Below are positions 19,140 to 63,235 of a stretch of 64,000 bases of DNA, piece after piece. Position numbers and translations under genes: made by a program. Every line of letters begins with the position of its first letter. Positions within the stretch are counted from its first letter, which is position 1. The notes below the pieces were generated by a model, which was not told where the DNA came from, ran no database searches, and saw only the letters and a program-made list of their open reading frames with translations. The DNA is taken from contig JAKLDD010000001.1 in NCBI GenBank assembly GCA_022703705.1, forward strand, positions 2,657-66,656. Direction: 5' to 3'. Source of the stretch: Nanobdellota archaeon. Lineage in GTDB: Archaea > Nanobdellota > Nanobdellia > Pacearchaeales > GW2011-AR1.

Positions 19140-19417
19140 ATAATTTTTTCCCCTCGATGATCTTCTATTTTATTATCGAAAACCTCCGCGAAAGGTTTAT
19201 AAAGCTCATTTTTTTGGTGTATTCTGTTAATTAAGATGAGTGCCTTAACAATATACAAAAATTCTAAGGTATGAAGTATGTAGAAGCAGTCATCTATTTG
19301 TAATTTTTATCAACCAATTTTTATGTTCAAAGCCGATAGTTAGGAATAATGTGTGAAGTGATTTCTTTTCTTATATAGAAATCGCGTAAATTCGATTTAT
19401 AGTCGATATTTATCTAA

Positions 19418-20862: not shown

Positions 20863-20967
20863 TATTTATTATTAAAATTGGCAAATTCAAATTGACTTTC
20901 TACATACTCATCTTATTACAGAAAACTTAAAAAACCCATGCGGGCTAAAATAAATGTATGCGGTTTT

Positions 20968-21003
20968 CATAATTTCCGTCGGAGGCAATGAGAGAAATTA
21001 TCT
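20968..21003 (+). other. ITS hairpin with a CGTCGGAGGCAATGAGAG loop
   Basis: ATAATTTC...GAAATTAT inverted repeat preceded by GGTTTT; a paralogous hairpin lies at 21530-21563. Confidence 0.4.
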
Positions 21004-21053
21004 TTCGGTGTCTAGAGGGAAGCTTACAAAAAGAAACCGCAAGGTGTCTTTTG

Positions 21054-21124
21054 GGGCTCTTAGTCCAACGGTAGAACACTTGCCTTGCACGCATGAGATC
21101 CGGGTTCGACTCCCGGAGAGTCCA
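21054..21124 (+). tRNA. tRNA-Ala (anticodon TGC) in the 16S-23S spacer
   Basis: Cloverleaf folded by hand: acceptor GGGCTCT/AGAGTCC, T-arm CCGGG-TTCGACT-CCCGG, anticodon loop CTTGCAC; CCA not encoded. Confidence 0.85.
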
Positions 21125-21529
21125 TTCAAACAAAAGTTTTCTGTATAAGATTAATTAACTGACAATAATCAAACAAACACAACGGAGAAAAACAAAATGA
21201 CAAAAACAATGTTAGAAAAAATCAAAGGAATGAATATTCCAGTTGGAGCTCCAATTGAAATTACTAATAAAGATGGAAATAAGGAATTAAGATATTTTGG
21301 GGGGTTTACAAGTCATGATGATACCATTTGGGCTGGATTAAAAAATAATAGATATAATCCACTAAAACTATCAAATTTAGAAAATATAGATAGGCGATAT
21401 TACAAAAAATAAATCACAATCACAAATCATATTCACATCACGTGAAAAATCAGCTGATAAAATATCAGCACTGGTTCCGAAGCAACTTTCGGAATCAATT
21501 TGAGAATAAGCAAAACAATTCAAGGTTTT

Positions 21530-21563
21530 GCGATTTCCTTCGGAGGCAACTCCAGAAATCGCT
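21530..21563 (+). other. ITS hairpin with a CTTCGGAGGCAACTCCA loop
   Basis: GCGATTTC...GAAATCGC inverted repeat preceded by GGTTTT; paralogue of the hairpin at 20968-21003. Confidence 0.4.
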
Positions 21564-21684
21564 GTTCAGCGATTAGAGGAAAATCGAAAAAAACCAGCAG
21601 GTTGTTTTCATATTCAATGAAATAAGTAACAGAAAATCCCACTTAATAATAATGAAAATTATAATTTAATTTTCAGGCATACTA

Positions 21685-24483
<2,799 letters not shown>

Positions 24484-24585
24484 CATTTTTAGTATACCTG
24501 AAAATTGGATTTTCTGTTACTTATTTATTTGATTTTTATTTCTGATATAATAATACTTAAATACTATTTTTTTATTTTATATATC

Positions 24586-25467: not shown

Positions 25468-26454
25468 ATGAAAATAGCATCTTTCTTTTCTGGAGCAGGG
25501 GGATTAGATTTAGGTTTTACTAATGCGGGATTTAAATTAGCTTTTGCGAACGATAATTGGGGTGGTTGCTGGGAAACATTTGAAAAAAATCATGGAATAA
25601 CTATTAATAAAAAATCTATTACAGATTTAAGTTCAGAAGAGATTCCAGAAGTTGTTGGATTTGTTGGTGGACCTCCTTGTCAAAGTTGGAGTTTAGCAGG
25701 AAGAATGGAAGGAATAAAAGACCCAAGAGGTCAGTTATTTTATAATTATATAAAGTTAATAAAAGAAAAGCAACCCTTATTTTTCCTTGCCGAAAATGTT
25801 GCAGGTATTCTTTCTCCAAAACATTATCCAGAATTTATGAAGATTATTAAAGAATTTGAAAAAATTGGTTACAAGGTATCATATAAACTTCTTGATGCAA
25901 AATTCTTTAATGTACCTCAAGAAAGAAAAAGGGTTATTGTTGTAGGATACCACCATAAACTTGGTAAAGAATTTGAATTTCCTAAAGCAAGTTTAAGATT
26001 GTTTACATTAAAAGAAGCAATAGGTGATTTATCAAAACCAATTCCTGCAAGTGAAAGAAATAAGTCTAATGGAAAATTAAGTGTTCCAAATAACGAATAT
26101 ATGAATGGGGGATTTTCAACAATCTATATGTCAAGAAATCGTGTAAGAGGATGGAATGAACAGTCATTTACTATACAAGCAGGGGGAAGACATGCACCAA
26201 TACATCCTCAAGCACCTAAGATGAAATTTATAGAGCAGAATAAGAGGGAGTTTGTAAAAGGAAGTGAACACCTATATAGAAGATTATCCGTTAGAGAATG
26301 TGCAAGGATACAAACTTTCCCAGATGATTTCATTTTTTATTATACTGATATTGCAGACGGATACAAAATGATTGGTAATGCTGTTCCTGTAAAGTTTGCA
26401 GAAGTAATTGCAAAAAAGATTATGGAAGATTTAAAAGAATTAAAAGCTAAATGA
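25468..26454 (+). CDS. DNA (cytosine-5)-methyltransferase
   Basis: Motif I FSGAGGLDLGF, motif IV GGPPCQSWS and motif VI ENV. Confidence 0.9.
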   Translation: MKIASFFSGAGGLDLGFTNAGFKLAFANDNWGGCWETFEKNHGITINKKSITDLSSEEIPEVVGFVGGPPCQSWSLAGRMEGIKDPRGQLFYNYIKLIKEKQPLFFLAENVAGILSPKHYPEFMKIIKEFEKIGYKVSYKLLDAKFFNVPQERKRVIVVGYHHKLGKEFEFPKASLRLFTLKEAIGDLSKPIPASERNKSNGKLSVPNNEYMNGGFSTIYMSRNRVRGWNEQSFTIQAGGRHAPIHPQAPKMKFIEQNKREFVKGSEHLYRRLSVRECARIQTFPDDFIFYYTDIADGYKMIGNAVPVKFAEVIAKKIMEDLKELKAK

Positions 26455-27294
26455 GATTAATTTTGCATCTATATTCTTTGCAGTATCATTAGGATTTGAT
26501 ATTGCTATGTCTTTAATCTGAATAGATTTATTGATTTCAATTCTTTTTCTGTCCTCTGATGGAAAAGAGTTATATTTTTCTTTTTCCATTATAACAAATA
26601 GAGAAAATTCTTTTGTAGCATCAAAGTCTATAGTTTTAGAGAAAACTTCTTTTGGATTCTCTATGTTCCACATACCTCTTATTCTTAAAGAAGTTATACC
26701 AAGAGGGTCAACCTTATCAACACCCCCTAATTCTACAGTCTCTTTACTTTTTAGTTTATTTTTTGAAAGAACTTCTTCTATTTCCTTTTTCAAGGAACTA
26801 TGGAGATTATCATAAACAGAATGATTTGCACAATAACATTTACCTTGAACAAAGAAGAGATATTTCATTTTCTGTGTTTTATCTACAGAACCAACGATAT
26901 AGAAAATATCCTTTTCTTTCCAATTCTCTTCACATTTTCTACATTCTGAGGTTAATCTTGGGTCTGTAATAAGGAGTGTACTTTTTGGAGGAGAACTATT
27001 TAATGCAAGAGAACTGTTAATTCCTTCTATCTTCTTTGTTTCAAAGGCATCTCCTCCTCTTATTATCAAATCAGGAGGATTGTTTTGACTTCCTTGCCAA
27101 GAGAATATTCTCTTATACTCTGCTTCTTTTTCTTGTTGGGTCTTTCTGAAAGTTCCCGCAATTGCATCCAAGACATAAAACTCTAATTTATCTCCCACAG
27201 CATTTATTCTGATAAGGTATTTAGTAGCATACTTTTTTAGGTTATTTTCCCTAAAAGAAGCAATGTTATCAATTGCTTTGAGGATATTTGGCAT
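26440..27294 (-). CDS. putative type II restriction endonuclease
   Basis: Convergent with the m5C methyltransferase with a 15-nt 3' overlap; PPDLIIRGGDAFETKK resembles a PD-(D/E)XK core. No confident family assignment. Confidence 0.45.
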   Translation of the reverse strand: MPNILKAIDNIASFRENNLKKYATKYLIRINAVGDKLEFYVLDAIAGTFRKTQQEKEAEYKRIFSWQGSQNNPPDLIIRGGDAFETKKIEGINSSLALNSSPPKSTLLITDPRLTSECRKCEENWKEKDIFYIVGSVDKTQKMKYLFFVQGKCYCANHSVYDNLHSSLKKEIEEVLSKNKLKSKETVELGGVDKVDPLGITSLRIRGMWNIENPKEVFSKTIDFDATKEFSLFVIMEKEKYNSFPSEDRKRIEINKSIQIKDIAISNPNDTAKNIDAKLISFSF

Positions 27295-36135: not shown

Positions 36136-37407
36136 ATGAAAAACAAATTTCTAAATTTAAATTATAAACCCAAGAAAACAGATGTTATTTGTCAATATAA
36201 AATAACTCCTGCAAAAGGATATAGTTTAAAAAAAGTTTCTGAAGAAGTTGCGGGGGAAAGTTCAATAGGGACATGGACAAGTATTGGAACAATGGATAAA
36301 AAAATTACTGAAAAATTGGCTCCAAAAATATATTATATAAGTGAAAAAGATAAAAGAGTCAGAATAGCTTACCCTCTTGAATTGTTTGAATTAGGAAATC
36401 TCCCAGAAATCCTTTCAAGTGTTGGAGGAAATATATATGGAATGAAATCAGTTAAAGGGATTATGTGGGAAGATTTGAGAATTCCTGAAAAAATGCTGAA
36501 AAGTTTTAAGGGACCTAAATATGGAATTCCTGGTTTAAGAAAATTAATGAAAATTCCAAAAAGACCCTTAATGGGAACAATAATAAAACCTAAGGTTGGA
36601 CTTGATGAAAAAAATCATGCAAGAGTTGCTTATGAAGCATGGATTGGGGGATGCGACATTGTTAAAGATGATGAAAATTTAACATCACAGAATTTTAATA
36701 ATTTTAAAAAAAGATTTTTACTTACAATAAAGGCGTGTAAAAAAGCAGAAAAAGAAACTGGTGAAAAAAAATTATATCTTGTAAATTGTACTGCTGAATC
36801 CGAAGAAATGAAAAAAAGAATAAAGTTTGTTGAAGAAAATGGGGGAAATTGTATTATGCTTGATATTTTAACATTAGGATGGGGGGCATTGCAGACTGCA
36901 AGAAATTTCACAAAACTTCCAATTCATGCACATAGAGCAGGACATGCAATGTATGATAGAAACCCAAATCATGGAATGTCTATGGAAGTTATTGCACAAT
37001 TAGCAAGAATGGTTGGAGTAGATACATTGCATATTGGAACAATATATGGGAAAATGACAGGAGACAAAAAAGAAGTTCTACATATACAAGAAGAAATTGA
37101 AACTCAATTTACTCCCAAAACAAAAAAGAATTTAGAACAAAGATGGTACAATATAAAACCTGTTATGGGTGTTGCATCTGGAGGAGTTTATCCTGGAATT
37201 GTGCCAAAGATGCTAAAAGCAATGGGAAATAATATTGTGATTCAGGCAGGGGGAGGAGTTCATGGACATCCGGATGGAACAATTGCTGGAGCAAAAGCAA
37301 TGAGACAAGCAATAGATGCGTTCATAAAAAGAAAAAGTTTAAAAGAATATTCAAATAATAATGAAGAATTAAAAAGAGCATTAGAAAACTGGAAAAAAAT
37401 AAAATGA
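36136..37407 (+). CDS. rbcL: ribulose-1,5-bisphosphate carboxylase large-subunit homologue (form III or II/III)
   Basis: VAGESSIGTWT, GGCDIVKDDENL and GGGVHGHPDG motifs; 423 aa. Confidence 0.85.
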   Translation: MKNKFLNLNYKPKKTDVICQYKITPAKGYSLKKVSEEVAGESSIGTWTSIGTMDKKITEKLAPKIYYISEKDKRVRIAYPLELFELGNLPEILSSVGGNIYGMKSVKGIMWEDLRIPEKMLKSFKGPKYGIPGLRKLMKIPKRPLMGTIIKPKVGLDEKNHARVAYEAWIGGCDIVKDDENLTSQNFNNFKKRFLLTIKACKKAEKETGEKKLYLVNCTAESEEMKKRIKFVEENGGNCIMLDILTLGWGALQTARNFTKLPIHAHRAGHAMYDRNPNHGMSMEVIAQLARMVGVDTLHIGTIYGKMTGDKKEVLHIQEEIETQFTPKTKKNLEQRWYNIKPVMGVASGGVYPGIVPKMLKAMGNNIVIQAGGGVHGHPDGTIAGAKAMRQAIDAFIKRKSLKEYSNNNEELKRALENWKKIK

Positions 37408-48150: not shown

Positions 48151-49746
48151 ATGAAAACCCTTGAACGAGTAATGGAAGAAAGTGAAAGAATGTACTGGGC
48201 AGATTCTATTGCGTCTAATTTGATTCGTTCGAATCCAAAGCAAAAAAAATTTACGTGTGCTGCTGGAATTAGTCCATCCGGAATAATACATATTGGAAAT
48301 TTTAGAGATATCATAACGTCTGATTTAGTTTGTCGTTCTTTAAGGGATAAAGGGTATGAAGCAGAATTAATCTTTTCTTGGGATGAATACGATAGATTAA
48401 GAAAGATTCCAAAAGGAGTGCCAGAGAAATTTAGTAAATATTTAGGAATGCCCCTAGCTGAAGTTCCTGATCCAGATAAATGTCATAAATCTTATGCTAA
48501 GCATTTTCAGGCACCATTTGAAGAAGCAATACCCCAACTTATAACATCAATAAAATTTTTATATCAAGCAGAAAAATACAAAAATAATGAATATTATGAG
48601 GGAATTAAAACAGCAATGCAAAAAAGAAAGCAGATAGCAGAGATATTGGCGGAATTCAAGACTCAGGGCATGACAGAAAAAGAAATGGAAGAATATTACC
48701 CCTTACAGGTTTACTGTAGAAAATGCAATAAAGGAACAACTACAAAAATAATCGATTATGATGGAGAGGATAAGGTAATTTACAAGTGCGAATGTGGCAA
48801 TAAAGAAACTGTAGATATTTCAAAAGAGAATATAGGAAAGCTCGATTGGAAGGTTGACTGGCCTATGAGATGGAAACATGAAGGAGTAAGTTTTGAACCG
48901 GGAGGGGAAGATCATGCAACCCCCGGAGGTAGTTTTGATGTTGCAAGTAGAATTGCTAAAAAAATTTATGGTATCGAACCCCCTTATTTTCAAGGATATG
49001 GCTTCGTTGGGGTAGAAGGAGCTTCTAAGATGTCTGGATCAAAGGGAACAGGAATTGCTCCAAAAGATTTACTTGAAATCTATGAGCCAGAGCTATTAAG
49101 ATGGTTATTCACAAGAGTTAATCCTATGAAAGTATTAACACTATTTTTTGATTCTCAGATAATAAGACAGTATGATGAATTTGATAGAGAAGTTATAAAT
49201 TATTATGAAAACAAACTTCAATCAACTGAAAAAAGAGCCCTAGAACTTGCTACTGTAAATCCCAAAAAGCCTTTGGTCAAGGAAAGAGTTCCGTTCAGAC
49301 AGGCTGGTTCATTCGGACAAGTCGCTCAAGGAAATTTCAAAGAACTTAAAAGTATTTATAAAAGAATAGGAGAAAAATATTCGGATGAGATCTTAAAACA
49401 GAGATTAGTAAAATCTCAAAATTGGATAGATAAATTTGCTCCAGAACTAAAAATTAATGTAAGAGAAATTCCAAACGATAATTATTACAAAAAACTAACA
49501 AAAAAAGAGAAAGAACAAATAGATAAATTTAAAGAAGGGTTCGAGAAACACTGGAATTTGGAAGATCTTACAACTTTTGTATATTCGGTCCCAAAAAAAC
49601 CTGAAATGACTGAAAATGAAAAGAAGATAGAACAAAGAAATTTCTTTAAAAATGTTTATCAGATGCTTATAGATGCAGACACTGGCCCAAGATTGCCAAC
49701 ATTTTTACTTGCATTGGGAAAAGAAAAAGTAAAAAAGCTGTTATAG
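48151..49746 (+). CDS. lysK: lysyl-tRNA synthetase, class I
   Basis: GIIHIGNFRD (HIGH variant), Cys-rich insertion CRKCNKG...CECGNKE, KMSGSKG (KMSKS). Confidence 0.9.
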   Translation: MKTLERVMEESERMYWADSIASNLIRSNPKQKKFTCAAGISPSGIIHIGNFRDIITSDLVCRSLRDKGYEAELIFSWDEYDRLRKIPKGVPEKFSKYLGMPLAEVPDPDKCHKSYAKHFQAPFEEAIPQLITSIKFLYQAEKYKNNEYYEGIKTAMQKRKQIAEILAEFKTQGMTEKEMEEYYPLQVYCRKCNKGTTTKIIDYDGEDKVIYKCECGNKETVDISKENIGKLDWKVDWPMRWKHEGVSFEPGGEDHATPGGSFDVASRIAKKIYGIEPPYFQGYGFVGVEGASKMSGSKGTGIAPKDLLEIYEPELLRWLFTRVNPMKVLTLFFDSQIIRQYDEFDREVINYYENKLQSTEKRALELATVNPKKPLVKERVPFRQAGSFGQVAQGNFKELKSIYKRIGEKYSDEILKQRLVKSQNWIDKFAPELKINVREIPNDNYYKKLTKKEKEQIDKFKEGFEKHWNLEDLTTFVYSVPKKPEMTENEKKIEQRNFFKNVYQMLIDADTGPRLPTFLLALGKEKVKKLL

Positions 49747-49795
49747 AGATAAAAAGACTGCACATTCAAAGTAGATGCAGAATATATTATAACCT

Positions 49796-49870
49796 GGACC
49801 GGTAGCTCAGCAAGGTAGAGCGCTAAGGTTTTTATTTTGGAGGAGAGATGTTCAAATCATCTCCGGTCCA
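49796..49870 (+). tRNA. tRNA-Lys (anticodon TTT), slightly irregular anticodon arm
   Basis: Hand fold: acceptor GGACCGG/CCGGTCC, D-arm GCTC..GAGC, T-arm AGATG-TTCAAAT-CATCT, anticodon region CTAAG-GTTTTTAT-TTTGG. The loop is either 7 nt with U37 or 8 nt. Confidence 0.6.
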
Positions 49871-49875
49871 TCATA

Positions 49876-51225
49876 ATGAACAAGAAATTCAAATATAAGA
49901 TAGAAGAGTATGCTGAGAAAGCCATAGAACAAGCAAAAAAAATTGGAGAGCCTGTTACTTGCAGATGTGGTGAAACTCCTGGAGGAACAAAGCATATAGA
50001 AAATTTTAATGATAACATCAGAAGTTACTTTATCTATCTTGCAGTAAAAGAAAAAGGTTATCCTGCGAGGCATATACAAACTAGAGATAATATGGACCCA
50101 TTTAGAAAACTTCCATCGGGGTTCTTTGATTTAAATAAAAAATGGCACACATCTTCTTTAAAATTAATTAAAGAGTATAATAAATATGTTGGAACCCCTC
50201 TTTATTTTATCCCAGACCCGCTGGGATGTTGTGAAAATTATGCTGAACATTTCAGAAAAATCTATGAAAGCGAATGTGATTTGATGGGATTAAAAGACAC
50301 CCAGTACTTTAGCACTGAAGACCTATATAGAACAGGAAAATTTAATCCGTATCTTAAAAAAATATTTGAAAAAGCAGAATTAGCAAGAGAGATAGATTTG
50401 AATATAGAGAATACAAAGCCCAAAGATTATATTCCCGTGTGAGTTATATGTGAAAAATGTAAAAAGATAACTGGCAGAATAAAACATATAAATCTTAAAA
50501 AAGAAACTGTAGAATATGTCTGCACTGGAAGAAATTTGACTTCAAAGTATCCTGCAAGGGGGTGTGGAAACACTGGAACTATTGATTGGAAGAATGGAAA
50601 TACGAAAATGGATTGGGAATTTGAATGGCCTGCTCAAATGCTAATATTTAAAACAACCTTAGAACCTTTTGGAAAAGAACATTTTATTGGTTCTTGGCCT
50701 TTTGCAAAACAAGTAATACTTAAGATATATAAAAAAGAGCTCCCATTAGTGTTTTTTTATGAATATTTTCTGGTTAATAAGCAAAAAATGGCGACTAGAC
50801 ATGGTAATGTAACTCCCCTTTCTACTTTATTAAAAGTCCTTGAACCAGAAGTTATCCGTTACTTATATACTAAGCGCCCAAGAAAACAAAGAAACCTTAC
50901 TCCTCAAAATATAATTAACTTAGTTAATGAATTTGATTCTGCTGAAAAAATCTGGTTTAATTTAAAGAAGGCAAAAAATGAAAAAGAGTTTGAAAAAATA
51001 AAGAAAAATTATGAGTTTGCATTCTTAAAAAATGTTCCAAAAAAATTTCCAAATAGAATTTCTTATCCAAGATTGATTAAACTTTTAAATAGATTTTCTA
51101 ACAATAAAGTAAAAGATATTGTTTCAAGAGAAAAAAACTTGGAAGAAATAGATTATAGCTTAAAAAGAATTGAATTAATAAAAAATTGGATAAAACTATT
51201 CTCTTCACAAAGTTTTAAAAAATAA
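49876..51225 (+). pseudogene. degenerate class I LysRS paralogue whose frame continues through one in-frame TGA (50440-50442)
   Basis: VTCRCGETPGGTKHIENFND vs FTCAAGISPSGIIHIGNFRD; KMDWEFEWPAQM vs KLDWKVDWPMRW; LEPFGKEHFIGSWPF vs FEPGGEDHATPGGSF; KMATRHG replaces KMSGSKG. ORFs 49837-50442 and 50536-51225 share a frame, and homology runs across the stop. Confidence 0.55.
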
Positions 51226-52166: not shown

Positions 52167-52781
52167 ATGGAAATAGAAATAAAAAATAAACCCAATTTTT
52201 CCAAACAAGGAAAGAAAAATCGTGCTGCAGGCATAAGATTTGAAGCGAAAGTCAGAGAAAATCTTGAAAAGATGGGTTGGATTGTTGACAAATGGACAAA
52301 TACAGTAGATTATAATCGGGAAGGAAATATCGGCAAAGTAGTTCCTGCAAAAAGAAAATACAATCCATTCAAAAAAATAATGGTTCTTGGAACAGGGTTT
52401 CCTGATTTTATTGCTTTTAGGACTAATAAAAAAGAGAATTCAAAGTTTCCATTAATGAAAGGTTTTTGTGAAAATTGCAAAAGAGAATCTTTGGGTTATG
52501 ATGAAATTAAGGGATTTATCTCCTGCAACTTTTGTGGAGAGCATATAATATCTACATCAATTGAAAAAGAAGAAAAATTTAAAGAAAATCAAACGAAAAT
52601 TATTGGTGTCGAGGTAAAAAGTAAGGGGTATCTTGACGAAATTGAAAGAGATATGTGCCGATGGCTTATAAAAAATAATATCTTTTCAGAGATATTAATA
52701 GCAAAAAAAGGAAAGAAAAGAGGGGAAATTGAGTATATTAATTTCTCTGACAAATATAAAGAAGATTTTACAGCACAATAA
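52167..52781 (+). CDS. Hjc-like PD-(D/E)XK nuclease with an inserted CxxC...CxxC zinc ribbon
   Basis: GIRFEAKVRENLEKMGW, GTGFPDFIAF and IIGVEVKSKG match Hjc motifs G..ER...L...G, PDIIA and IE.KS; insertion CENCKRES...CNFCGEH. Confidence 0.5.
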   Translation: MEIEIKNKPNFSKQGKKNRAAGIRFEAKVRENLEKMGWIVDKWTNTVDYNREGNIGKVVPAKRKYNPFKKIMVLGTGFPDFIAFRTNKKENSKFPLMKGFCENCKRESLGYDEIKGFISCNFCGEHIISTSIEKEEKFKENQTKIIGVEVKSKGYLDEIERDMCRWLIKNNIFSEILIAKKGKKRGEIEYINFSDKYKEDFTAQ

Positions 52782-52812: not shown

Positions 52813-53373
52813 ATGAAAAAAAGGATATTAATCCTATTTTTATTTGCAATTGTTCTTTCTCAAGTTTATGCATTATGCAATAATGAGCAAATAGACTTGA
52901 ATACTGCTTCTATTGAAGAATTAGATAAATTATCAGGTATTGGCCCAGTAAAGGCGCAAGCAATAATTGATTCTCGCCCATTTAATTCTATTGACGAATT
53001 AATAAATGTAAATGGAATAGGTGAAGTAACTCTTACAAATATAAAACAGCAAGGACTTGCATGTGTAGGAAAGGAAGATGAAGAAGAATCAGAAGAAGAT
53101 ATTGAAGAACAAGAAAAAGAAGAGAGCATTGAAACAGAAAAAGAGGATATTGAAGAATTAATCAATGTTTCAGCAGAGAAATTTACAAAAACAACAAAAG
53201 AAGAAATTAAACCAATTACTCTTATGTCAAATGCGCAAAATATAAAAAGTGAAGATATCAAACAATTAGATAAAAGCAAACTGTCAATTTATGGGATTAT
53301 AACATTTTGTCTTTTGCTTATTACCTTATTTATGGTTAAAAAGGATAAATATAAAAAAAATGAGTTCAGATAA
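52813..53373 (+). CDS. ComEA-like helix-hairpin-helix DNA-binding protein; signal peptide, acidic linker and C-terminal TM anchor
   Basis: IDLNTASIEELDKLSGIGPVKAQAIIDSRPFNSIDELINVNGIGEVTL is a ComEA-type double HhH. Confidence 0.65.
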   Translation: MKKRILILFLFAIVLSQVYALCNNEQIDLNTASIEELDKLSGIGPVKAQAIIDSRPFNSIDELINVNGIGEVTLTNIKQQGLACVGKEDEEESEEDIEEQEKEESIETEKEDIEELINVSAEKFTKTTKEEIKPITLMSNAQNIKSEDIKQLDKSKLSIYGIITFCLLLITLFMVKKDKYKKNEFR

Positions 53374-53860
53374 AGAAACAAAAAACATTCGTGCTTCAAT
53401 AATTCTAGAAATAATTGGAATGCCCCCAGAACATTTATTAGAAACACTGGAAGATATAATAAAAAATATTGACAATGAAAAGGGGGTTTCTGTTAAAAGC
53501 AAAAAAATAAATGAACCTGTTCTAATTAAAGAACAAGAAAAATTTTATACAACTTTTGCAGAAGTTGAAATTGAAGTAGATGACATTTTATATCTTGCAA
53601 TAATAATGTTCAAATATATGCCTGCTCATGTGGAAGTTATTGAGCCTGAATTAATTGCTTTAACAAACAATGGATGGACAGACATTCTTAGTGAACTTGC
53701 AAGAAGACTTCATGGATATGAAGAAGTTGCACGTGTTTTACAAATTAAAAATTCGCAGATGGAGAAAAAATTTAGAGAACTTCTCCCTGAAGAAAATAAG
53801 AGTAAAGAGATAAATTTACAAGAAGAAACAGAAAAGAAGAAAAGAAAAAAGAAAAAATAA
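53360..53860 (+). CDS. hypothetical acidic protein with a poly-Lys C-terminus
   Basis: 166-aa ORF overlapping the ComEA-like gene by 14 nt. Confidence 0.4.
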   Translation: MSSDKETKNIRASIILEIIGMPPEHLLETLEDIIKNIDNEKGVSVKSKKINEPVLIKEQEKFYTTFAEVEIEVDDILYLAIIMFKYMPAHVEVIEPELIALTNNGWTDILSELARRLHGYEEVARVLQIKNSQMEKKFRELLPEENKSKEINLQEETEKKKRKKKK

Positions 53861-53868
53861 TTTATCTT

Positions 53869-55206
53869 TTATTTTTTTCCATCAAGAACAGTATCTTTAG
53901 TTTTTTTAGTTTTCTTAAATTTCATTATAAAAAACCAGAAAATCAGGATACCAATAACCAAGATTATTATCCAGCCAATCAATTTACTATTTGGGTTTCC
54001 CCCACTTTCTTTACAATTTGAAAGGCAGCAATTAGCATCTTTTGTAGTAACAGTGTTGTTTGCACAAACTTGTCCTTGCGGGCAAATTGTTCCATTTATC
54101 TCTGCACAAGTTTTAGTTATAATACTTCCAGAAGATTTAGTGCAGGTTCCATTTGTTTGACAAATCTCTCCTGAAGAACAATCTCCACAATCAGTTATTT
54201 TACCACAAATTGTTCTGTTTCCACAAGAATATTTTAATGAAGTACAAGTATCTGCACAAGGAGTAATAGTGCAAGAACCGTTTGTTTGACAAATCTCTCC
54301 TGAAGAACAATCTCCACAATCAGTTATTTTACCACAAATTGTTCTGTTTCCACAAGAATATTTTAATGAAGTACAAGTGTCAGTGCAATTTGTTTCTTTA
54401 CACCCAAATAATTTTGTAAACCAAGTACAATTAGTAGAAGAAGTTTCATTTGTATTAGTTTCGTTTGTAGGGTTTATTGTTTCATTTGTATTATTTGTTT
54501 GAGTTCCATTGGTGTTATTTGTTATGTTTGTATTATTGTAATTGCTTTCGTTTAAAATAATATAGACTGGAATTTTGTAATTTAAATTGCTTGTTGAAAA
54601 AGTTATTTCTCTAACAGTTGTTCCTGCAAAATTATCTAATCCTATATTAATATATTTTGCTTGTCCGGAAGGTAAATTTATGGAGTTTTCAACTTCTTCT
54701 CCCCCATATTCAAAAATAAATGAGCCAATTGGATTTCCTGAGATTAATTCTTCACTGAATTCAATTTCAACATTACTTCCAATTAAATTTTGTAGCTTTA
54801 ATGAAAAATCTTCTTCAGTGATTATAAATCCATTTGAAACTGAAAAATCTGCAACTTCTCCAATTATTTCAAAACTTTTTGAAATTTGCTGATTTAAAAT
54901 TTGAGAACCTTCCAAATAACGAACACCAGTAATATTTATTGAATAATTATTTGGAGATTTCCCTGCAGACTGAAAATAAATGTAATATGTTTCTCCTATT
55001 TTTGCAACTTTTGGGTCAAAAGAAGTTCTTACATGATTTCTATAAAATTGAATATTATCTGTAGTTATTGGGTCCAAAAAATTTCCTGAAGCAGATGCTA
55101 TTATAGTCTGTCCTTGAAAAAATTGAGAATTCATTTCCAATTCTAATGCAGAAATAACTGGAAAAATAAAAAACAATACAAAAAACAAAGCACCTATTTT
55201 TTTCAT
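53869..55206 (-). CDS. cell-surface protein: signal peptide, Asn/Thr-rich N-glycosylation stretch, duplicated Cys-rich module, C-terminal TM anchor
   Basis: NNTNITNNTNGTQTNNTNETINPTNETNTNETSSTN sequon-rich stretch; CxDTCTSLKYSCGNRTICGKITDCGDCSSGEICQTNG repeated twice; TM plus KKTKKTK tail. Confidence 0.6.
   Translation of the reverse strand: MKKIGALFFVLFFIFPVISALELEMNSQFFQGQTIIASASGNFLDPITTDNIQFYRNHVRTSFDPKVAKIGETYYIYFQSAGKSPNNYSINITGVRYLEGSQILNQQISKSFEIIGEVADFSVSNGFIITEEDFSLKLQNLIGSNVEIEFSEELISGNPIGSFIFEYGGEEVENSINLPSGQAKYINIGLDNFAGTTVREITFSTSNLNYKIPVYIILNESNYNNTNITNNTNGTQTNNTNETINPTNETNTNETSSTNCTWFTKLFGCKETNCTDTCTSLKYSCGNRTICGKITDCGDCSSGEICQTNGSCTITPCADTCTSLKYSCGNRTICGKITDCGDCSSGEICQTNGTCTKSSGSIITKTCAEINGTICPQGQVCANNTVTTKDANCCLSNCKESGGNPNSKLIGWIIILVIGILIFWFFIMKFKKTKKTKDTVLDGKK
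54152..54378. repeat. tandem direct repeat, ~129-bp unit with a 98-bp identical core (54152-54249 and 54281-54378)
   Basis: Read directly from the sequence; encodes the duplicated 43-aa Cys-rich module. Confidence 0.85.
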
Positions 55207-55259
55207 GTTAAAAGAAAGAAAAAATACTTAATAAAGTTTATTGGAAGATACTTAAAAAA

Positions 55260-57605
55260 TTAATTATTTCCCATCTCCTTAAGTTTTTTTAGAACCTCAT
55301 CCAATTCTCCTTTTTTAGATTCTTCTGGTTTTTTTACTGCAGGGCGCTGGATTGGCGCAGGCCTTCTTACTGGGGGTTTTGCAGGAGAAGGAAGTATTCT
55401 TCTAGGCATTAATCTTGATTGAGGACGATTAGAAAGAGGAATTATTGAAGTTGAAGGCATTCCAACTTTATTTCCTGTATTTTGTTTTTTTCCTCCAAGT
55501 TTAGATTTTAATTTAAACCAAAATGGTTTTAATTTATCCTTAAATACAATTGCTATTAAAGAAATTAAAATTAAAATTATTAAAACCAAAATAAGCCACA
55601 TCCCACTTTTTTTAGGAAGGCAACATGTTTTTCCAGAACCGCAAGTATAATCAGAAGTAGATTTTTCTTTTGTTCCACAAGTTGATTTGCAAGTTCCTTC
55701 ATGAGAATTGCAGGTATAAGTCCCACTACTAACACAAGAACCGCCTACACAATTTTCATCTGAAGAACAAGCTGGAGTGCATATCTCTGAAGAAGATTGA
55801 CATTCTGCTCCAACACAACAAATATCTCCTACAGCAACATCAGAAGCATCTCTACTTGTTCCAGTTAATGGACAAGATTCACCCATATTAGAATAACATA
55901 TATTTCCCCCTTGACTTTCACATGTTCCAACAGTAGGTTCTTTAGTACAACAAACAAAAGTCCCTCCTTCTGAACAAGAATATTTACTCTCTGCTAAATT
56001 ATTATCTGCACATTTTGAGCCCAAAACACAAAAATAACCAGATTCTTCACAATCAATAATATCTGAAAGAAAACATTCTCCAGAATCATCGCAATCGTAT
56101 CCTGTGGGACAATCCCGGAAACCATCACACGGCCCTATTTGGTCTGAACACTCTCCATAACTACATTTTTCACTATTTGAACAAGTCTCAATTGTCTTTG
56201 GTGTTTTCTCTTCAATACAAACCCTGTTCTTGCACACGCCCTCTATAACCTCCTGTAAAACCTTGGTTTTATCATCAGAACAATAATAATTCTGAGTTGA
56301 ATCTAAATAATCACAATCATCATTTGAAGAACATTGATTTTCACCTACACCACAATCATTATCATTTATATAAGTACAACCCACCCCACAACACCCATCT
56401 CCATCTTTGCATTCTGTTAAAGAATCATACAAGCAAACCCCATTAACACAGGAAGCTACCTGACAATCATACTGAATACAATTACTGGAAAACAAACAAG
56501 TTCCCAACGGAGAAGGGCCCTTTGGCCAAATTGAATATAAAATAAACGCAGTATCTTTTAAATTTCCCCCATTCCAACATCCGCTTTCTTCTTGAACTCT
56601 CAAAAGCCATTCCTTAGAGTATCCTTTTTCATATGGAGCTTCATAACGAAAGGGCCATAATGCCAAAGCAGTATCATAATATTTATTTCCAGACTCGTCC
56701 CAGTATAATTGAGCTTTTTGCTTTAATAATAATTCTGTTCCAAATTTATTTGTTAAAGAATATAAAAAAGATTCTGGGATATATTTTTTATTTTCTTCCA
56801 TCCCGGTTATTAAATAAGGTATAAATTTTGAAATTTGACTTGCATTATGATTTAAAGAATATAAAACAAATGTTGCCCATAAACTGCCTTCATAATTGCA
56901 TCCTGATCCATCTGAAAAACATAAGGAATCTACAATCTCTTTTGTTGTTCCTCCAGAAGAAGCAGAATGAGCAATATTTGAAACATGGATTGCCTGAGAA
57001 TCTTTTTTCTTAAATAATAATGTTGTCATAAAATTCGTATTTGAAGTGCCTGTATTGCACGAAATTCTTATTTCTTTATTGTAACATGATGGAGAAATTT
57101 TAATCCAATAATTATCTTGGGCCAAACTTAGACAACTTCCTAAACTTGAAGAAGAAAGAGTTTTGTTTTCCAATAATTTTAAGGAATATGTTGTATCTGA
57201 ATAAATTATTGTGCATAATGCAGAAGAAGAACTTTCTATTTCCAAAAACCAATCAATATCAGAAGGTACAGAAGTTTTTGAAAGAAGCCAGTTTTCAGAA
57301 GATTTTAAATCTGCTTTTCCGTCCAAGGCAAGCATTGCCTGAGAAGTTGACTTTATTGTGCAACCTGATTTTGGCCAGCATTGATTTGAAAGATTATCCG
57401 ATATGATTTCATTTTTACAATTGCCTGTTGCAAGCAAAGAAAAAACTTTTTCTTCAAAAGCAAGAGAAGAGCATTTGCTTGAATTTATTTTTGCTTCCAA
57501 ACAAGAATATGCTTTTTCAACTTGAGCAAGTTCATCTGCAACTACTATTGGAAATAATAGAATTAACACAAAGAACAATATGAATATAAAAACTCCTCTC
57601 TTCAT
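55260..57605 (-). CDS. large Cys-rich type I membrane/surface protein with a Pro/Arg-rich cytoplasmic tail
   Basis: Signal peptide; a region with prenyltransferase/alpha-alpha-toroid-like repeats (CWNGGNLKDTAFILYSIW); over 80 Cys in an EGF-like stalk; single TM; cytoplasmic tail RPQSRLMPRRILPSPAKPPVRRPAPIQRPAVKKPEE. Confidence 0.6.
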   Translation of the reverse strand: MKRGVFIFILFFVLILLFPIVVADELAQVEKAYSCLEAKINSSKCSSLAFEEKVFSLLATGNCKNEIISDNLSNQCWPKSGCTIKSTSQAMLALDGKADLKSSENWLLSKTSVPSDIDWFLEIESSSSALCTIIYSDTTYSLKLLENKTLSSSSLGSCLSLAQDNYWIKISPSCYNKEIRISCNTGTSNTNFMTTLLFKKKDSQAIHVSNIAHSASSGGTTKEIVDSLCFSDGSGCNYEGSLWATFVLYSLNHNASQISKFIPYLITGMEENKKYIPESFLYSLTNKFGTELLLKQKAQLYWDESGNKYYDTALALWPFRYEAPYEKGYSKEWLLRVQEESGCWNGGNLKDTAFILYSIWPKGPSPLGTCLFSSNCIQYDCQVASCVNGVCLYDSLTECKDGDGCCGVGCTYINDNDCGVGENQCSSNDDCDYLDSTQNYYCSDDKTKVLQEVIEGVCKNRVCIEEKTPKTIETCSNSEKCSYGECSDQIGPCDGFRDCPTGYDCDDSGECFLSDIIDCEESGYFCVLGSKCADNNLAESKYSCSEGGTFVCCTKEPTVGTCESQGGNICYSNMGESCPLTGTSRDASDVAVGDICCVGAECQSSSEICTPACSSDENCVGGSCVSSGTYTCNSHEGTCKSTCGTKEKSTSDYTCGSGKTCCLPKKSGMWLILVLIILILISLIAIVFKDKLKPFWFKLKSKLGGKKQNTGNKVGMPSTSIIPLSNRPQSRLMPRRILPSPAKPPVRRPAPIQRPAVKKPEESKKGELDEVLKKLKEMGNN

Positions 57606-57649
57606 TAAAGAAACATGTCAAAGTTGTTTATAAATATTTTTATAAAATT

Positions 57650-58912
57650 CTATTTCTTGTTTTCTTTAAGGTTTTTTCTAATAATATAATTTGTCGGATT
57701 TTTTATTAATTTGCAAAAAGCATTTGGTTCGCAAACCCCAATTCCCAAATAAAATTCCTTGCAATTTGGAGGCATTATAATTTTATTTCTATAAGACCAG
57801 AGAATTTGTGATTGGATATATCCTTCTCTTAAAGGAACTTCATTTTTTTTATTCCATTCGTAAATTCTTTTTTCAAGTTCATCCTTATCCATTCCTATTG
57901 AACGAAATAAATTTATTAAAACAAACAAAGCTCTTTTTTTACCATCTGAAAGTCCTTTAAGGATATTTTTTATGCAGGGGGGAAAATGTGCATCAGAAAG
58001 ATTGGTAAGTTTAATCTGACTAAAAACCCTTTCTTCTCTTTTTTCATCTTTATTTGTTTCTTTATACCAATCCAATGCCTGAATTAAAAGTTCTGAAGCC
58101 TCTTCTTCTTTTGAATTTGGAAAAAAACTTAGAATGTTTTTTTCAGATAATTTAATTGGATTTGCATTCTTCATATCAAAAGTTTCTATTTCTTCTGGTT
58201 TTAAAACAACACTTGCCAAAGAAGTTTTTTCATGAAGAGAATAGGGCATTCTAAACAAATGCCTTGGTGAAACTAAGACTAAATCCGGAACAACTTCTTT
58301 TGGAGCAGAATAATCTTTAATATATTTGTTTGGTCTTTCTAGCTCAGAAATTTTTTCAATTAATTTATTCTTAGTCTGCTCTATAAGATACTTAATTAAA
58401 ATTCTTGGCCATTCTGGGAATTTATCAGAAGTTTTTACACCATTAATTTCTTTTGGAAATGCCTTCCAGGGAATTATTAAATGGAAACCTTTTGAACCCG
58501 AGAATTTTATTCCTACGTTTTTTACCCCGTGAAATTTTAATACTTTTAAAATTTCTATTGCCATAATCTTACTATAATCTATATACTTGCTATCAATATC
58601 AATAAGAAAATCCCAACCGCATCTTAATTCATTAAGTTGCTTTTCATTCATTCCTGTTTGTATTTTAAGAGGATCTTTCCAAAACTCTTCCGAACAATGA
58701 AAAGAAGTTGCACCTTTTTTTACTAATTCAAAAATATCTCCTGGATATTCAAATGTATCTGGGCGTTTCCCAAATCCTTCAAAATATCTCGGACAAATTT
58801 CCCGATTTTTTGAAAATTCAAAAATAATTTTTTGAATTTCTGGTCTTGAATAATAAAGACTTGTTATTTTTCTTATTCTTTGTTCATTTACAGAAACAGC
58901 TCTTTTTTCCAT
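57650..58912 (-). CDS. DNA primase, fused PriS catalytic domain plus PriL-like C-terminal 4-Cys domain
   Basis: PriS motifs FLIDIDS, FSGSKGFHLII and FRMPYSLHEKT; the C-terminal HFPPC...PPNC...GVC...AFC four-Cys cluster resembles the PriL Fe-S domain. Confidence 0.65.
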   Translation of the reverse strand: MEKRAVSVNEQRIRKITSLYYSRPEIQKIIFEFSKNREICPRYFEGFGKRPDTFEYPGDIFELVKKGATSFHCSEEFWKDPLKIQTGMNEKQLNELRCGWDFLIDIDSKYIDYSKIMAIEILKVLKFHGVKNVGIKFSGSKGFHLIIPWKAFPKEINGVKTSDKFPEWPRILIKYLIEQTKNKLIEKISELERPNKYIKDYSAPKEVVPDLVLVSPRHLFRMPYSLHEKTSLASVVLKPEEIETFDMKNANPIKLSEKNILSFFPNSKEEEASELLIQALDWYKETNKDEKREERVFSQIKLTNLSDAHFPPCIKNILKGLSDGKKRALFVLINLFRSIGMDKDELEKRIYEWNKKNEVPLREGYIQSQILWSYRNKIIMPPNCKEFYLGIGVCEPNAFCKLIKNPTNYIIRKNLKENKK

Positions 58913-61588: not shown

Positions 61589-63235
61589 ATGAACAAAAAA
61601 ATATTTATTAATTTTGGAATTATTTTTTTAATTGGAATTTTATCTATTAATTTTATTATTGCAGAAAGCTCTTACTGCTGTGAAAGATTAGCAAGCGGGC
61701 AATGGTGTCAAAATGCCCCTCAAGGACAATGCGCAACTGGAATAAATCCCTTTTCAAATCAGCAATATACTACGCCTGTTGCAACTTCTTGTCAATTAAC
61801 TTCATATTGCAAATTAGGAACATGTGTAGATTCTAAATCTGGAACATGCACAGCAAACACCCCATTAACAGTATGCAATAATCGTGGAGGAGTTTGGAAA
61901 GCAGAAGAAGTAGGGGATTTACCTGAATGCCAATTAGGATGTTGTCTTCTTGGAGATTCAGCAGCATTTACAACACAAGTTCAATGTAAGAAATTATCTT
62001 CAGATTATGGTTTAACCACTAATTATAGGGCAGATATAACCAATGAATTAGAATGCATTGCAAGCATAACCTCTGACGAAATTGGAGCGTGTGTTTTTGA
62101 AGAAGAATATCAAACAACTTGCAGAATGATAAGTCAAAAAGATTGCAGTGAAATAAATGGGGGTGAATTTCATAGTGGATTTTTATGTTCTGCACAACAG
62201 CTTGCTACTAATTGCGGACCGCGAGGGGGAACACTTTGTCATCAAGAAAGCGTATATTTTTTAGATACTTGCGGAAATATTGCAAATATTTATGATTTTT
62301 CTAAATTAAATGACAATAATTATTGGACATATATTCAAGAACCTTCATGCGATAATGGAATGGGAAACAAAAATTCAAAAACCTGTGGGTCTTGTGATTA
62401 TTTTTCTGGAAGTGTATGTACAATATATCAAAGAGGGGAAACAATAAAACCAGATTATGGAGATTATTTTTGTGGAAGTCTAGATTGTAAAGAGGTTGGA
62501 AAACTTCATGGAGAAACTTGGTGTGAAGAAAATAGTATTACAAGTGTAAAAGGACAAAATTTACCTGGAAGTAGATATTATAGATTTATGTGTTATAATG
62601 GAGAAGTTAGTATTGAACCTTGTTCAGAGTTTAGAAATGAAATTTGTATTGAAGATGAGGTTAATGATTTCAGTGTTGCGGGATGTGTTTTAAATAAATG
62701 GCAGGATTGTGTAAGTCAAACAAACAAAACAGAATGCGAAAATACTTACTTAAGAGATTGCAAATGGATAAGCGGATATAGTGTTTTAAAAAATGAAGAT
62801 GGAGAAAACCTTGCATTTACTGAAACAGAAGATAACAAAATACCTGGAACTTGTGTTCCAAAATATGCTCCTGGTTTTGATTTCTATGCTGAAACTGGAA
62901 ATGGAGCAGAAGTTTGCAGTTTGGGAACACAAGCTTGTGTTGTGAGATATGAAATTGGAATTCTTGCAAGTAAAAAGAAATTATCACAAAAAGATTGGGA
63001 TGAAAAAATGGGAAAATGTGTTGAAAACTGCTATTGCATTCCAGGATATACAAGCGGAAAAGCAAAAGATAAATATGAAAACAATAAACCCTCCTGGCAT
63101 CCAAAAAGTTATGATGAATGGGTTAAATTAGCAAATGAAATATGCACAGCATTTGGAGATTGTGGAACAAAGAAAAATTATCTTGGAGGTTCAGGAGATA
63201 TTAAAGAAATATTCACAAGCGAATTTACAAAATGA
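61589..63235 (+). CDS. secreted Cys-rich protein
   Basis: Signal peptide plus more than 40 Cys over 548 aa; start immediately follows the upstream stop. Confidence 0.5.
   Translation: MNKKIFINFGIIFLIGILSINFIIAESSYCCERLASGQWCQNAPQGQCATGINPFSNQQYTTPVATSCQLTSYCKLGTCVDSKSGTCTANTPLTVCNNRGGVWKAEEVGDLPECQLGCCLLGDSAAFTTQVQCKKLSSDYGLTTNYRADITNELECIASITSDEIGACVFEEEYQTTCRMISQKDCSEINGGEFHSGFLCSAQQLATNCGPRGGTLCHQESVYFLDTCGNIANIYDFSKLNDNNYWTYIQEPSCDNGMGNKNSKTCGSCDYFSGSVCTIYQRGETIKPDYGDYFCGSLDCKEVGKLHGETWCEENSITSVKGQNLPGSRYYRFMCYNGEVSIEPCSEFRNEICIEDEVNDFSVAGCVLNKWQDCVSQTNKTECENTYLRDCKWISGYSVLKNEDGENLAFTETEDNKIPGTCVPKYAPGFDFYAETGNGAEVCSLGTQACVVRYEIGILASKKKLSQKDWDEKMGKCVENCYCIPGYTSGKAKDKYENNKPSWHPKSYDEWVKLANEICTAFGDCGTKKNYLGGSGDIKEIFTSEFTK

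Follow-up and report, generated by a model that had tools for sequence, protein, structure and literature searches.

On balance, two adjacent genes of a tiny DPANN archaeon labelled Candidatus Pacearchaeota, here termed A and B, are best read as part of the core genome in Pacearchaeota-type DPANN archaea and as encoding two conserved type I cell-surface glycoproteins that probably function together. These archaea are abundant and uncultured, and to our knowledge almost nothing is known of their cell surface or of how they make contact with other cells. Within the window, by which we mean the whole 64,000-nucleotide stretch of DNA that was analysed, gene A (53869-55206; 445 aa) and gene B (55260-57605; 781 aa) are confirmed open reading frames on the minus strand, the strand of all of their features given below. 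Hydropathy yields two hydrophobic segments for each protein and no more (aa 1-26 and 404-433 in A; aa 1-30 and 660-695 in B), which bears out the first-pass annotation of both as type I membrane proteins with a signal peptide and a single C-terminal transmembrane anchor. TATA-like boxes lie upstream of both genes and, the genome being 30% GC, carry no evidential weight.

Distribution, gene order and conservation

Relatives of B form more than 919 clusters at 90% identity and 885 at 50% identity, all of them unnamed, and occur in at least 415 species-representative genomes. Judged by its sequences the family is large and DPANN-only: the 80 species genomes listed are labelled DPANN or plain 'archaeon', except for two mis-binned contigs, and no homologue of either protein turned up in free-living archaea. 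The 62 homologues of A lie on contigs that also carry homologues of B. There is a single locus, in the same place between replication genes, in 80 of the 80 species genomes inspected, the order at these loci being PCNA in one direction, primase, B and A in the other, and then MJ0538 and a ComEA-like gene again in the direction of PCNA. Primase, B and A follow one another in 47 of the 48 species loci with a short B, while A is absent from seven of the eight with a long B and so is dispensable in that clade. In genomes this small a stable gene order could simply mean that rearrangements are few, and need not indicate a functional link, and the lengths of the B stalk and the A linker show no clear co-variation (Spearman 0.24, p = 0.08, without correction for phylogeny). 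Median identity is 50% for the N-terminal head of B, compared with 68% for PCNA, 65% for primase, 59% for the MJ0538-like protein and 33-47% for the other neighbours.

These levels of conservation bear on the possible, if unlikely, alternative that the two proteins are host-attachment adhesins, in which the head of B or the Ig-like domains of A would attach to a host-cell surface and thereby mediate episymbiosis. Both proteins are predicted to be stalked and surface-exposed, their families are found in DPANN-labelled genomes only and their spacer regions are hypervariable, all of which speaks for this alternative; the putative binding domains, however, are the conserved parts, and a head better conserved than most of its neighbours is unlike a fast-evolving host-specificity factor. 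The locus is likewise a fixed core block instead of a variable island, domain searches gave neither adhesins nor lectins nor any other domain with a known binding role, and these organisms have no known host.

Our searches of the literature on DPANN and Pacearchaeota surface proteins did not find the A and B families described. There is a parallel with the lineage-specific membrane and extracellular families of Pacearchaeota and Woesearchaeota which, in the sections of Castelle et al. 2021 (PMC8204110) that deal with them, are unannotated and treated collectively, those of Pacearchaeota being proposed as symbiosis-related, a proposal that favours attachment. The same sections tie to attachment the class of protein to which an SLT_2 lytic transglycosylase encoded in our window belongs. 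A and B are similarly DPANN-restricted, unannotated and predicted to be membrane or extracellular proteins, although the collective account in those sections of PMC8204110 does not describe an architecture, synteny, tail motif or repeat dynamics such as theirs.

Architecture of protein A and of the stalk and tail of protein B

The ectodomain of A (54553..55146; aa 21-218) consists of two Ig-like beta-sandwiches, as assigned from a tandem-Ig structural match (AF2 mean pLDDT of A, 80). A profile of A searched against the PDB gave a cohesin-like match only, which was insignificant (E = 0.17), and a PDB sequence search produced no significant match for either A or B. The identity implied by a JGI label on one homologue of A (P0123), the membrane-bound lysozyme inhibitor MliC, found no support, since neither Pfam nor NCBIfam returned that family for A (E <= 1 or <= 0.1). 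The ectodomain is followed by a low-complexity linker (54394..54552; aa 219-271), where pLDDT falls below 50 and which holds 10 of the 19 N-x-S/T sequons of A (at aa 219-259). As shuffled sequences contain 9.1 +/- 2.6 sequons, with none of 2000 reaching 19, and as the density of 4.3 per 100 aa is the maximum in the window (median 0.42), the dense sequon tract first described in A is upheld, together with the prediction of a glycosylation-type linker; orthologues of A also have N/T-rich linkers, of variable length. The sequon richness claimed for B does not hold, since it has four sequons where 7.3 would be expected. Beyond the linker of A come two copies of a cysteine module (copy 1, 54265..54393, aa 272-314; copy 2, 54136..54264, aa 315-357), each with eight Cys within 39 aa, then a juxtamembrane module (54001..54123; aa 362-402) whose six Cys are all invariant among 46 homologues, and lastly a transmembrane helix (53914..53991; aa 406-431, from AF2 and hydropathy) with a 14-aa basic tail.

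Protein B carries its head on a stalk of two parts. The first is variable (56055..56519; aa 363-517, 22 Cys), its length varying between 9 and 437 aa and its Cys count between 0 and 64 across 40 homologues; AF2 confidence is low at aa 364-423, more generally in parts of the stalk, and in the tail. The second consists of conserved membrane-proximal Cys modules (55608..56054; aa 518-666, 22 Cys), in which 18 Cys are invariant family-wide, and includes a module (aa 558-606) homologous to the juxtamembrane module of A (hhalign Prob 96.4%, E = 1.4e-9). This profile comparison alone was significant, BLASTP detecting no significant domain similarity between A and B or between B and a third Cys-rich protein of the window (61589-63235). 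The stalks of both proteins are, as first proposed, predicted to be disulphide-rich, although B has 56 Cys (12 in the head and 44 in the stalk) rather than more than 80, and the description of its stalk as EGF-like has to be given up. The EGF pattern comprises six Cys spaced C-x7-C-x4-5-C-x10-13-C-x-C-x8-C, and at E <= 1 no EGF family HMM matched either protein, the isolated B stalk or homologues rich in modules; the only EGF-related signal was a weak Foldseek similarity (E = 6e-4, prob 0.33, rmsd 23 A) to an 'EGF-like domain protein' of a Pithovirus.

The transmembrane helix of B (55545..55607; aa 667-687 by hydropathy, with an AF2 helix at 669-687) leads into a cytoplasmic tail (55263..55544; aa 688-781) defined from composition and the alignment of 40 homologues. 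With 13 P, 7 R and 17 K in 94 aa, it fits its earlier description as Pro/Arg-rich, and it is made up of a basic juxtamembrane helix, a Pro/Arg linker with a PRRILP motif and a C-terminal helix, ending in the near-invariant ELDDVLKKLKEMGK. The C-terminal motif itself, ELDEVLKKLKEM (55272..55307), is followed by three residues and the stop codon. A scan of about 1 Mb of related DNA with the pattern [DE][LIVM]D[DE]VLKKLK[DE]M gave 58 occurrences. No locus has more than one; each lies 2-5 residues upstream of a stop codon and on the same strand as the B match, and all but two, which sit in broken frames, belong to reading frames of the size of B. A C-terminal peptide of comparable kind is the MIM1 of ESCRT-III, a ligand of MIT domains with the consensus (D/E)xxLxxRLxxL(K/R), and the C-terminus of B, KGELDEVLKKLK, keeps four of its six positions, namely the three Leu and the final Lys. 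Val or Ile replaces the conserved Arg and position 1 lacks the conserved acidic residue, so that identity with MIM1 was rejected and, because the consensus Arg is missing, the likeness serves as a lead only.

Set against this architecture, it appears improbable to us that the pair forms an S-layer or surface coat in the manner of two-gene S-layer systems with a stalked membrane anchor. There is a resemblance to archaeal C-terminally anchored S-layer and surface glycoproteins, SlaA/SlaB for example, in the signal peptide, large ectodomain and single transmembrane anchor, in the N-glycosylation sequons (enriched in A only), in the two adjacent genes on one strand and in the Ig-like domains of A, a fold that also builds some archaeal S-layers; the presence of a single locus in each of the 80 species genomes inspected would also suit a coat. 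S-layer proteins are typically Cys-poor, however, whereas A and B are very rich in Cys (5.4% in A and 7.2% in B, where the window median is 1.1%), the head of B is far more conserved than is usual for such proteins, and a lattice would have no use for a cytoplasmic tail of 94 aa that is strictly conserved and carries a terminal peptide motif. Nor does either protein match an S-layer family in Pfam or NCBIfam or show a sequence or HMM relationship to any such family.

The head of protein B

The head (56520..57536; aa 24-362, 12 Cys) is predicted by AF2 to contain about 14 helices, arranged as a helical region (25-109), a beta-sandwich (117-231) and a second helical region (238-359), with pLDDT mostly above 90, compared with a mean of 75 for B as a whole. 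Among 22 diverse sequences 45 columns are invariant, and the invariant positions include many Trp and Tyr as well as polar residues (K85, T87, K148, E223, E239, D311, T312 and Q338). Pfam and NCBIfam searches with the head gave no match. In the PDB, a head profile matched only squalene-hopene and other class II terpene cyclases (the former being 3sqc, 2sqc, 1gsz and 8pak), with a weak E of 0.003 that reflects repeat similarities below family thresholds; the matches run through WL..Q...G.W and DTA..AL repeats, and individual stretches are not significant. A repeat of the QW type (aromatic-L-x3-Q-x3-G-x-W) is present at aa 333-344, WLLRVQEESGCW, where it aligns with the cyclase QW repeats, and across 40 homologues W333, Q338 and G342 are invariant and C343 and W344 nearly so. 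Foldseek against the PDB found nothing below E = 0.03, neither a toroid nor any other fold. Of the alpha-alpha-toroid-like repeat domain originally proposed for B, the helical repeats are supported, with a weak link to cyclases.

The alpha-alpha repeat fold is also that of the thioester domains of complement and alpha-2-macroglobulin, a candidate rejected because the CGEQ motif is missing from B. Catalysis of the DxDD type was rejected as well, the position of cyclase residue 377 being occupied by YYDTA and the sole D.DD string of B (DCDD) lying in the stalk.

It is doubtful, at best a minor possibility, that the head is an extracellular enzyme or scavenging receptor, the cyclase- or prenyltransferase-like cavity of which would bind or process an isoprenoid lipid or glycan from the surroundings or a host. 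The restriction of PDB sequence matches to terpene cyclases points this way, as do the enzyme-like level of conservation and the invariant aromatic and polar residues, which would fit a pocket, and the succession DTA..AL ... W-L-x3-Q-x3-G-x-W is indeed shared with the alpha-alpha repeats of class II terpene cyclases and prenyltransferases. Unlike those enzymes, the head has a beta-sandwich inserted mid-domain, lacks the DxDD acid motif and is extracellular and, by prediction, disulphide-bonded; the weakness of the repeat matches, the absent DxDD motif, the empty Pfam search and the lack of a toroid match in Foldseek speak against such a role.

The tandem repeat in protein A

The two Cys modules of A form a tandem repeat with a period of 129 nt (43 aa). 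The identical 98-nt DNA core reported at the outset is present (54152-54249 = 54281-54378), but the duplication is not perfect over 43 aa, the units sharing 39 of 43 aa and 116 of 129 nt around a perfect core of 35 aa. Although an exact 98-nt core free of synonymous differences could suggest an artefact of assembly or one very recent duplication, that explanation is largely refuted and has next to no chance of being right, since two independent assemblies (ENA k141 contig L085, covering all of 53000-58000, and JGI contig L086, covering about 4.4 kb of it) are 100% identical to the window where they overlap, both copies included, and two-copy orthologues exist in at least six genomes (the window and P0122-P0126), with position-specific edges in the three whose DNA was compared. 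The exact core is moreover shorter than the k of 141 implied by the contig name and so would presumably not confuse that assembler.

The duplication, first thought to be very recent, is shared by relatives with no more than 60-80% identity in A and retains conserved copy-specific edges (checked at DNA level in three genomes), which argues for an old duplication followed by gene conversion. Within a genome the copies are 90, 89 and 83% identical in DNA, with exact cores of 98, 79 and 46 nt, against 71-81% between genomes; the nearest relative of each copy is its sister in the window, P0122 and P0123, and the orthologous copy in P0125 and P0126. Sister copies closer than orthologues in several genomes point to recurrent conversion, and paralogous copies more alike than orthologous ones, after a duplication that predates the split, are what defines concerted evolution. 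Variation in repeat number, first suggested as ongoing, was seen as 0 to 4 copies among more distant relatives. In about 1 Mb of related DNA, a regular expression located the 8-Cys module in A orthologues of the window's own clade only, and a profile of it found nothing in an index of 5.8 billion proteins, the query being too short for a database of that size. Other surface repeats under concerted evolution likewise have within-genome copies closer than orthologous ones and varying copy number; A differs in having two copies only and conversion tracts of 46-98 nt confined to the module core. The 129-nt unit would thus be a spacer element, duplicated in the ancestor of the window's clade, with a core probably homogenised over and over by gene conversion and a copy number that may shift between relatives through unequal recombination.

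Proposed mechanism and significance

Returning to a co-functioning surface pair, B appears to be built as a transmembrane receptor or anchor, in which a strongly constrained head of terpene-cyclase-like helical repeats around a beta-sandwich would be held off the membrane by a rigid stalk of small, putatively disulphide-bonded knots that varies in length by lineage. A single transmembrane helix would connect this to the conserved cytoplasmic tail, where the basic juxtamembrane helix, the PRRILP motif and the helix of the terminal ELDDVLKKLKEMGK most likely serve to dock a partner in the cytoplasm. Protein A would act with B as an accessory subunit, presenting two Ig-like domains on a linker whose sequons are probably glycosylated, above its lineage-specific 8-Cys spacer modules and the 6-Cys juxtamembrane module homologous to that of B.

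A bolder version, to which we attach little weight, sees in the pair a two-subunit transmembrane receptor that resembles the integrins and is shared by all Pacearchaeota-type DPANN archaea, with the terpene-cyclase-like head capturing a conserved external ligand. By analogy only, B would correspond to the integrin-type subunit with a head, a stalk of disulphide-rich modules and a short conserved tail, and A to the second subunit, with Ig-like sandwiches and a very short basic tail; unlike integrins, A and B match no VWA/beta-I, propeller or EGF model, and the head of B is based on helical repeats. DPANN archaea are thought to be unable to make isoprenoid lipids themselves and, were this version true, the putative ligand might be, for example, an isoprenoid lipid or an envelope component of a host. 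The invariant C-terminal helix of B, with its MIM1-like spacing of leucines, would then link the state of the ligand or of a contact to machinery in the cytoplasm, and the whole would be an outside-in system for signalling or anchoring, of a type not so far described in archaea.

The analysis also defines several unnamed domain families, namely the head of B, the juxtamembrane module with six Cys and the spacer module with eight, and the repeat of A provides a clean, small case of a protein spacer homogenised by gene conversion. For the organisms themselves, the A/B pair is a core component, encoded at a single locus, of at least 415 species genomes, and its highly conserved domain outside the cell and peptide inside it offer an obvious experimental handle.

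A neighbouring pair of surface proteins

The window is an archaeal genome fragment (30% GC, with an rRNA operon at 19417-24498) in which two genes on the minus strand, A at 53869-55206 and B at 55260-57605, both confirmed as open reading frames, encode proteins of 445 and 781 aa, respectively. The exact A protein is on deposit as a hypothetical protein from a 'Candidatus Pacearchaeota archaeon' MAG, and we found no description of either protein in the papers searched; Castelle et al. 2021 (PMC8204110) describe lineage-specific Pacearchaeota families as unannotated and often membrane-bound or extracellular. Apart from an N-terminal signal sequence and a single C-terminal TM helix, neither protein has a hydrophobic segment, which agrees with the first-pass annotation. 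The cysteines of the two (24 in A and 56 in B, rather than the more than 80 once credited to B) are even in number and lie entirely within the ectodomains. The accompanying description of both as rich in glycosylation motifs holds for A, with 19 sequons against 9.1 +/- 2.6 in shuffled sequences and the highest density in the window, but not for B, where the count shows no enrichment over expectation.

Architecture of A and B

The AF2 model of A (mean pLDDT 80) opens with two Ig-like sandwiches at aa 21-218, which match tandem Ig modules in Foldseek (E = 5e-8). These are followed by a disordered sequon-rich linker, two 8-Cys knots, a juxtamembrane 6-Cys module (none of its cysteines varies across 46 homologues) and finally the TM helix with a basic tail of 14 aa. 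In B (mean pLDDT 75), a head spanning aa 24-362, with pLDDT mostly above 90, is built from helices (25-109), a beta-sandwich (117-231) and further helices (238-359), and leads into a Cys-rich stalk, the TM helix and a 94-aa tail. The head directly follows the signal peptide in all homologues, and across 40 of them the stretch between head and proximal modules varies from 9 to 437 aa.

Neither A, B nor 40 B homologues gave any Pfam or NCBIfam match save sporadic hits of the stalk to DUF7107 or defensin-like families, which leaves the earlier assignment of an EGF-like stalk unsupported. Against the PDB, a profile of the B head matches only squalene-hopene and other class II terpene cyclases, weakly (E = 0.003), through DTA..AL ... 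WL...Q...G.W repeats that include one QW-type repeat of textbook form at aa 333-344 (WLLRVQEESGCW). Motif scans of B found neither the cyclase DxDD nor the thioester CGEQ motif, and Foldseek returned no PDB match for the head, such that the label 'alpha-alpha-toroid-like' is reasonable, given the profile matches and the repeat, but unproven.

The whole B family shares a conserved cytoplasmic tail, in which a basic juxtamembrane helix (FRDKLR..W.K.KSKF) is followed by a Pro/Arg linker containing PRRILP and, at the C-terminus, by [DE][LIVM]D[DE]VLKKLK[DE]M-G-K. The [DE][LIVM]D[DE]VLKKLK[DE]M part was found in 58 of 87 sequences (the window and 86 loci), at most once in each, and always 2-5 residues ahead of the stop, on the same strand as the B match and in B-sized frames, two broken frames excepted. 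A peptide so conserved and so placed points to a binding partner in the cytoplasm. In the spacing of its leucines it resembles an ESCRT-III MIM1 helix, but it lacks the consensus arginine, and we therefore keep a MIM1-like reading only as a lead. In addition, homology links the juxtamembrane module of A with the second proximal module of B (hhalign Prob 96.4%, E = 1.4e-9, 37 columns), which, together with the fixed adjacency of the two genes, is the main, indirect argument that A and B belong together. Both the conservation of the tail and the shared module are new relative to the first-pass annotation.

A tandem repeat shaped by gene conversion

The two 8-Cys modules of A form a tandem repeat with a period of 129 nt (43 aa), which had been described as a perfect and very recent duplication. 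An exact core of 98 nt does exist (54152-54249 = 54281-54378), but the whole units are identical at only 116/129 nt and 39/43 aa. The repeat is real rather than the artefact of one assembly, as two other assemblies, from ENA and JGI, are 100% identical to the window across the covered parts of 53000-58000 (the JGI contig covers ~4.4 kb of it). Its recent origin was not borne out, since the same two modules occupy the same position in close relatives of A (60-80% identity).

In the three genomes for which DNA was available, the two copies within a genome share 90, 89 and 83% DNA identity, with exact cores of 98, 79 and 46 nt, and copies compared between genomes share only 71-81%. The edges of the modules differ by copy and are common to these genomes, xNC opening copy 1 and TPC opening copy 2. 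At the protein level, the sister copy is the nearest relative of each copy in the window and in two homologues (P0122 and P0123). For the copies in P0125 and P0126, the closest is the orthologous one of the other genome. Nearest-sister copies with shared copy-specific edges are the signature of a duplication that is ancestral and was later subject, in some lineages, to repeated gene conversion over short tracts. The suggestion of variable repeat number fared better, as three module matches occur in each of P0127 and P0128 (the P0127 alignment suggests more than three copies) and four in the 772-aa P0158; more distant homologues of A lack the module and have an N/T-rich linker or a third beta domain in its place. 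In ~1 Mb of related DNA, the module was found only in A orthologues of the window's clade.

Distribution and gene neighbourhood

B is a large family, with more than 919 clusters at 90% identity and 885 at 50%, and at least 415 loci in GTDB species representatives carry a relative. The homologue search named beforehand found relatives of A and B only in DPANN-labelled genomes and none outside them, the 80 inspected loci bearing Pace-, Woese-, Nano- or Diapherotrites/Iainarchaeum-type labels, or plain 'archaeon', plus two Patescibacteria-labelled short contigs. These two (L019 and L022, labelled 'Patescibacteria group bacterium' at NCBI) hold whole loci, primase-B(-A), on 2.7-3.0 kb and are probably mis-binned archaeal contigs, since the gene offsets of L019 exactly equal those of the archaeal locus L018.

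The same neighbourhood recurs in the 80 inspected loci: PCNA, divergent from a fused PriS-PriL primase that is followed on its own strand by B and then A, towards which converge genes for an MJ0538-like protein, a ComEA-like protein and an Hjc-like nuclease. Where B is short or medium, A follows it in 47 of 48 loci; where B reaches ~1000-1116 aa, with more than 60 Cys in the stalk, A is absent from seven of eight. In the long-B loci (L007, L009-L012, L014, L017 and L064), the stalk is ~430 aa, and where A is missing the MJ0538-like gene comes directly after B. In such species, the longer B may functionally replace A. Compared with the window proteins, the B head has a median identity of 50% and the A Ig domains one of 37%; PCNA reaches 68%, the primase 65% and the MJ0538-like protein 59%, and the remaining neighbours lie at 33-47%.

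In the window, the primase, a single chain with small- and large-subunit domains (57650-58912, minus), lies directly upstream of B, 44 nt away; the primase gene of one relative (L004, 3423-6098) contains an intein. An MJ0538-family conserved cytoplasmic protein (53360-53860, plus) converges on the end of A, and beyond it, conserved two genes downstream of A, is a ComEA-like HHH DNA-binding protein (52813-53373, plus; HHH_3 8e-17, TIGR01259 3.8e-15) with a signal peptide and a C-terminal TM helix. This protein could be a surface DNA receptor in what is presumably a nucleotide-scavenging organism. Further out lies a 204-aa protein (52167-52781, plus), whose positional counterpart in L004 is annotated as an Hjc resolvase. 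Genes for DNA replication and repair thus surround the pair. A third Cys-rich secreted protein (548 aa; 61589-63235, plus) has 43 Cys (7.8%, the window maximum) and a signal peptide without a C-terminal TM helix; it matches no Pfam or NCBIfam family and is not similar to B by BLASTP, and it adjoins PCNA in 43 of 80 species loci, which makes it a member of the same conserved block.

Other genes in the window

A lytic transglycosylase (3396-4334, plus; SLT_2, 1e-26) is encoded in this archaeal genome, the kind of murein-degrading protein that Castelle et al. 2021 (PMC8204110) tie to possible bacterial hosts of Pacearchaeota. The RuBisCO large subunit (36136-37407, plus; 3e-90) agrees with the form II/III or III-like RuBisCO described in Pacearchaeota, which the same paper ties to the metabolism of scavenged nucleotides. 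Just downstream of the rRNA operon, a restriction-modification pair on opposite strands (25468-27294) consists of a C-5 cytosine methylase (1e-91) and an NgoPII-type endonuclease (1e-83). At 48151-51225 (plus), a complete class I lysyl-tRNA synthetase (531 aa) precedes two ORFs of 201 and 229 aa with partial tRNA-synt_1f matches in the contig annotation, the latter confirmed by our own scan, and both look like duplicated or fragmented copies.

A core, probably receptor-like surface pair

Host attachment, the role first put forward, may apply to families that are predicted to be surface-exposed and are confined to DPANN-labelled genomes, but is less likely; it is exactly the putative binding domains that are conserved, and the genes sit in an invariant core block, which makes the pair unlike typical host-specificity factors. 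The B head may instead act as an enzyme or in scavenging, an attractive but less favoured view that draws on weak cyclase-like repeats. The high Cys content, the conserved B tail and the strongly conserved head speak against an S-layer role.

On present evidence, A and B are best read as a surface pair that belongs to the core genome and resembles a receptor. B would connect its constrained external head with an internal docking peptide through a stalk whose length is adjustable, and A would be an accessory Ig-domain subunit on a spacer predicted to be glycosylated and disulphide-knotted, of which the tandem repeat would form a part that evolves by conversion and unequal recombination.
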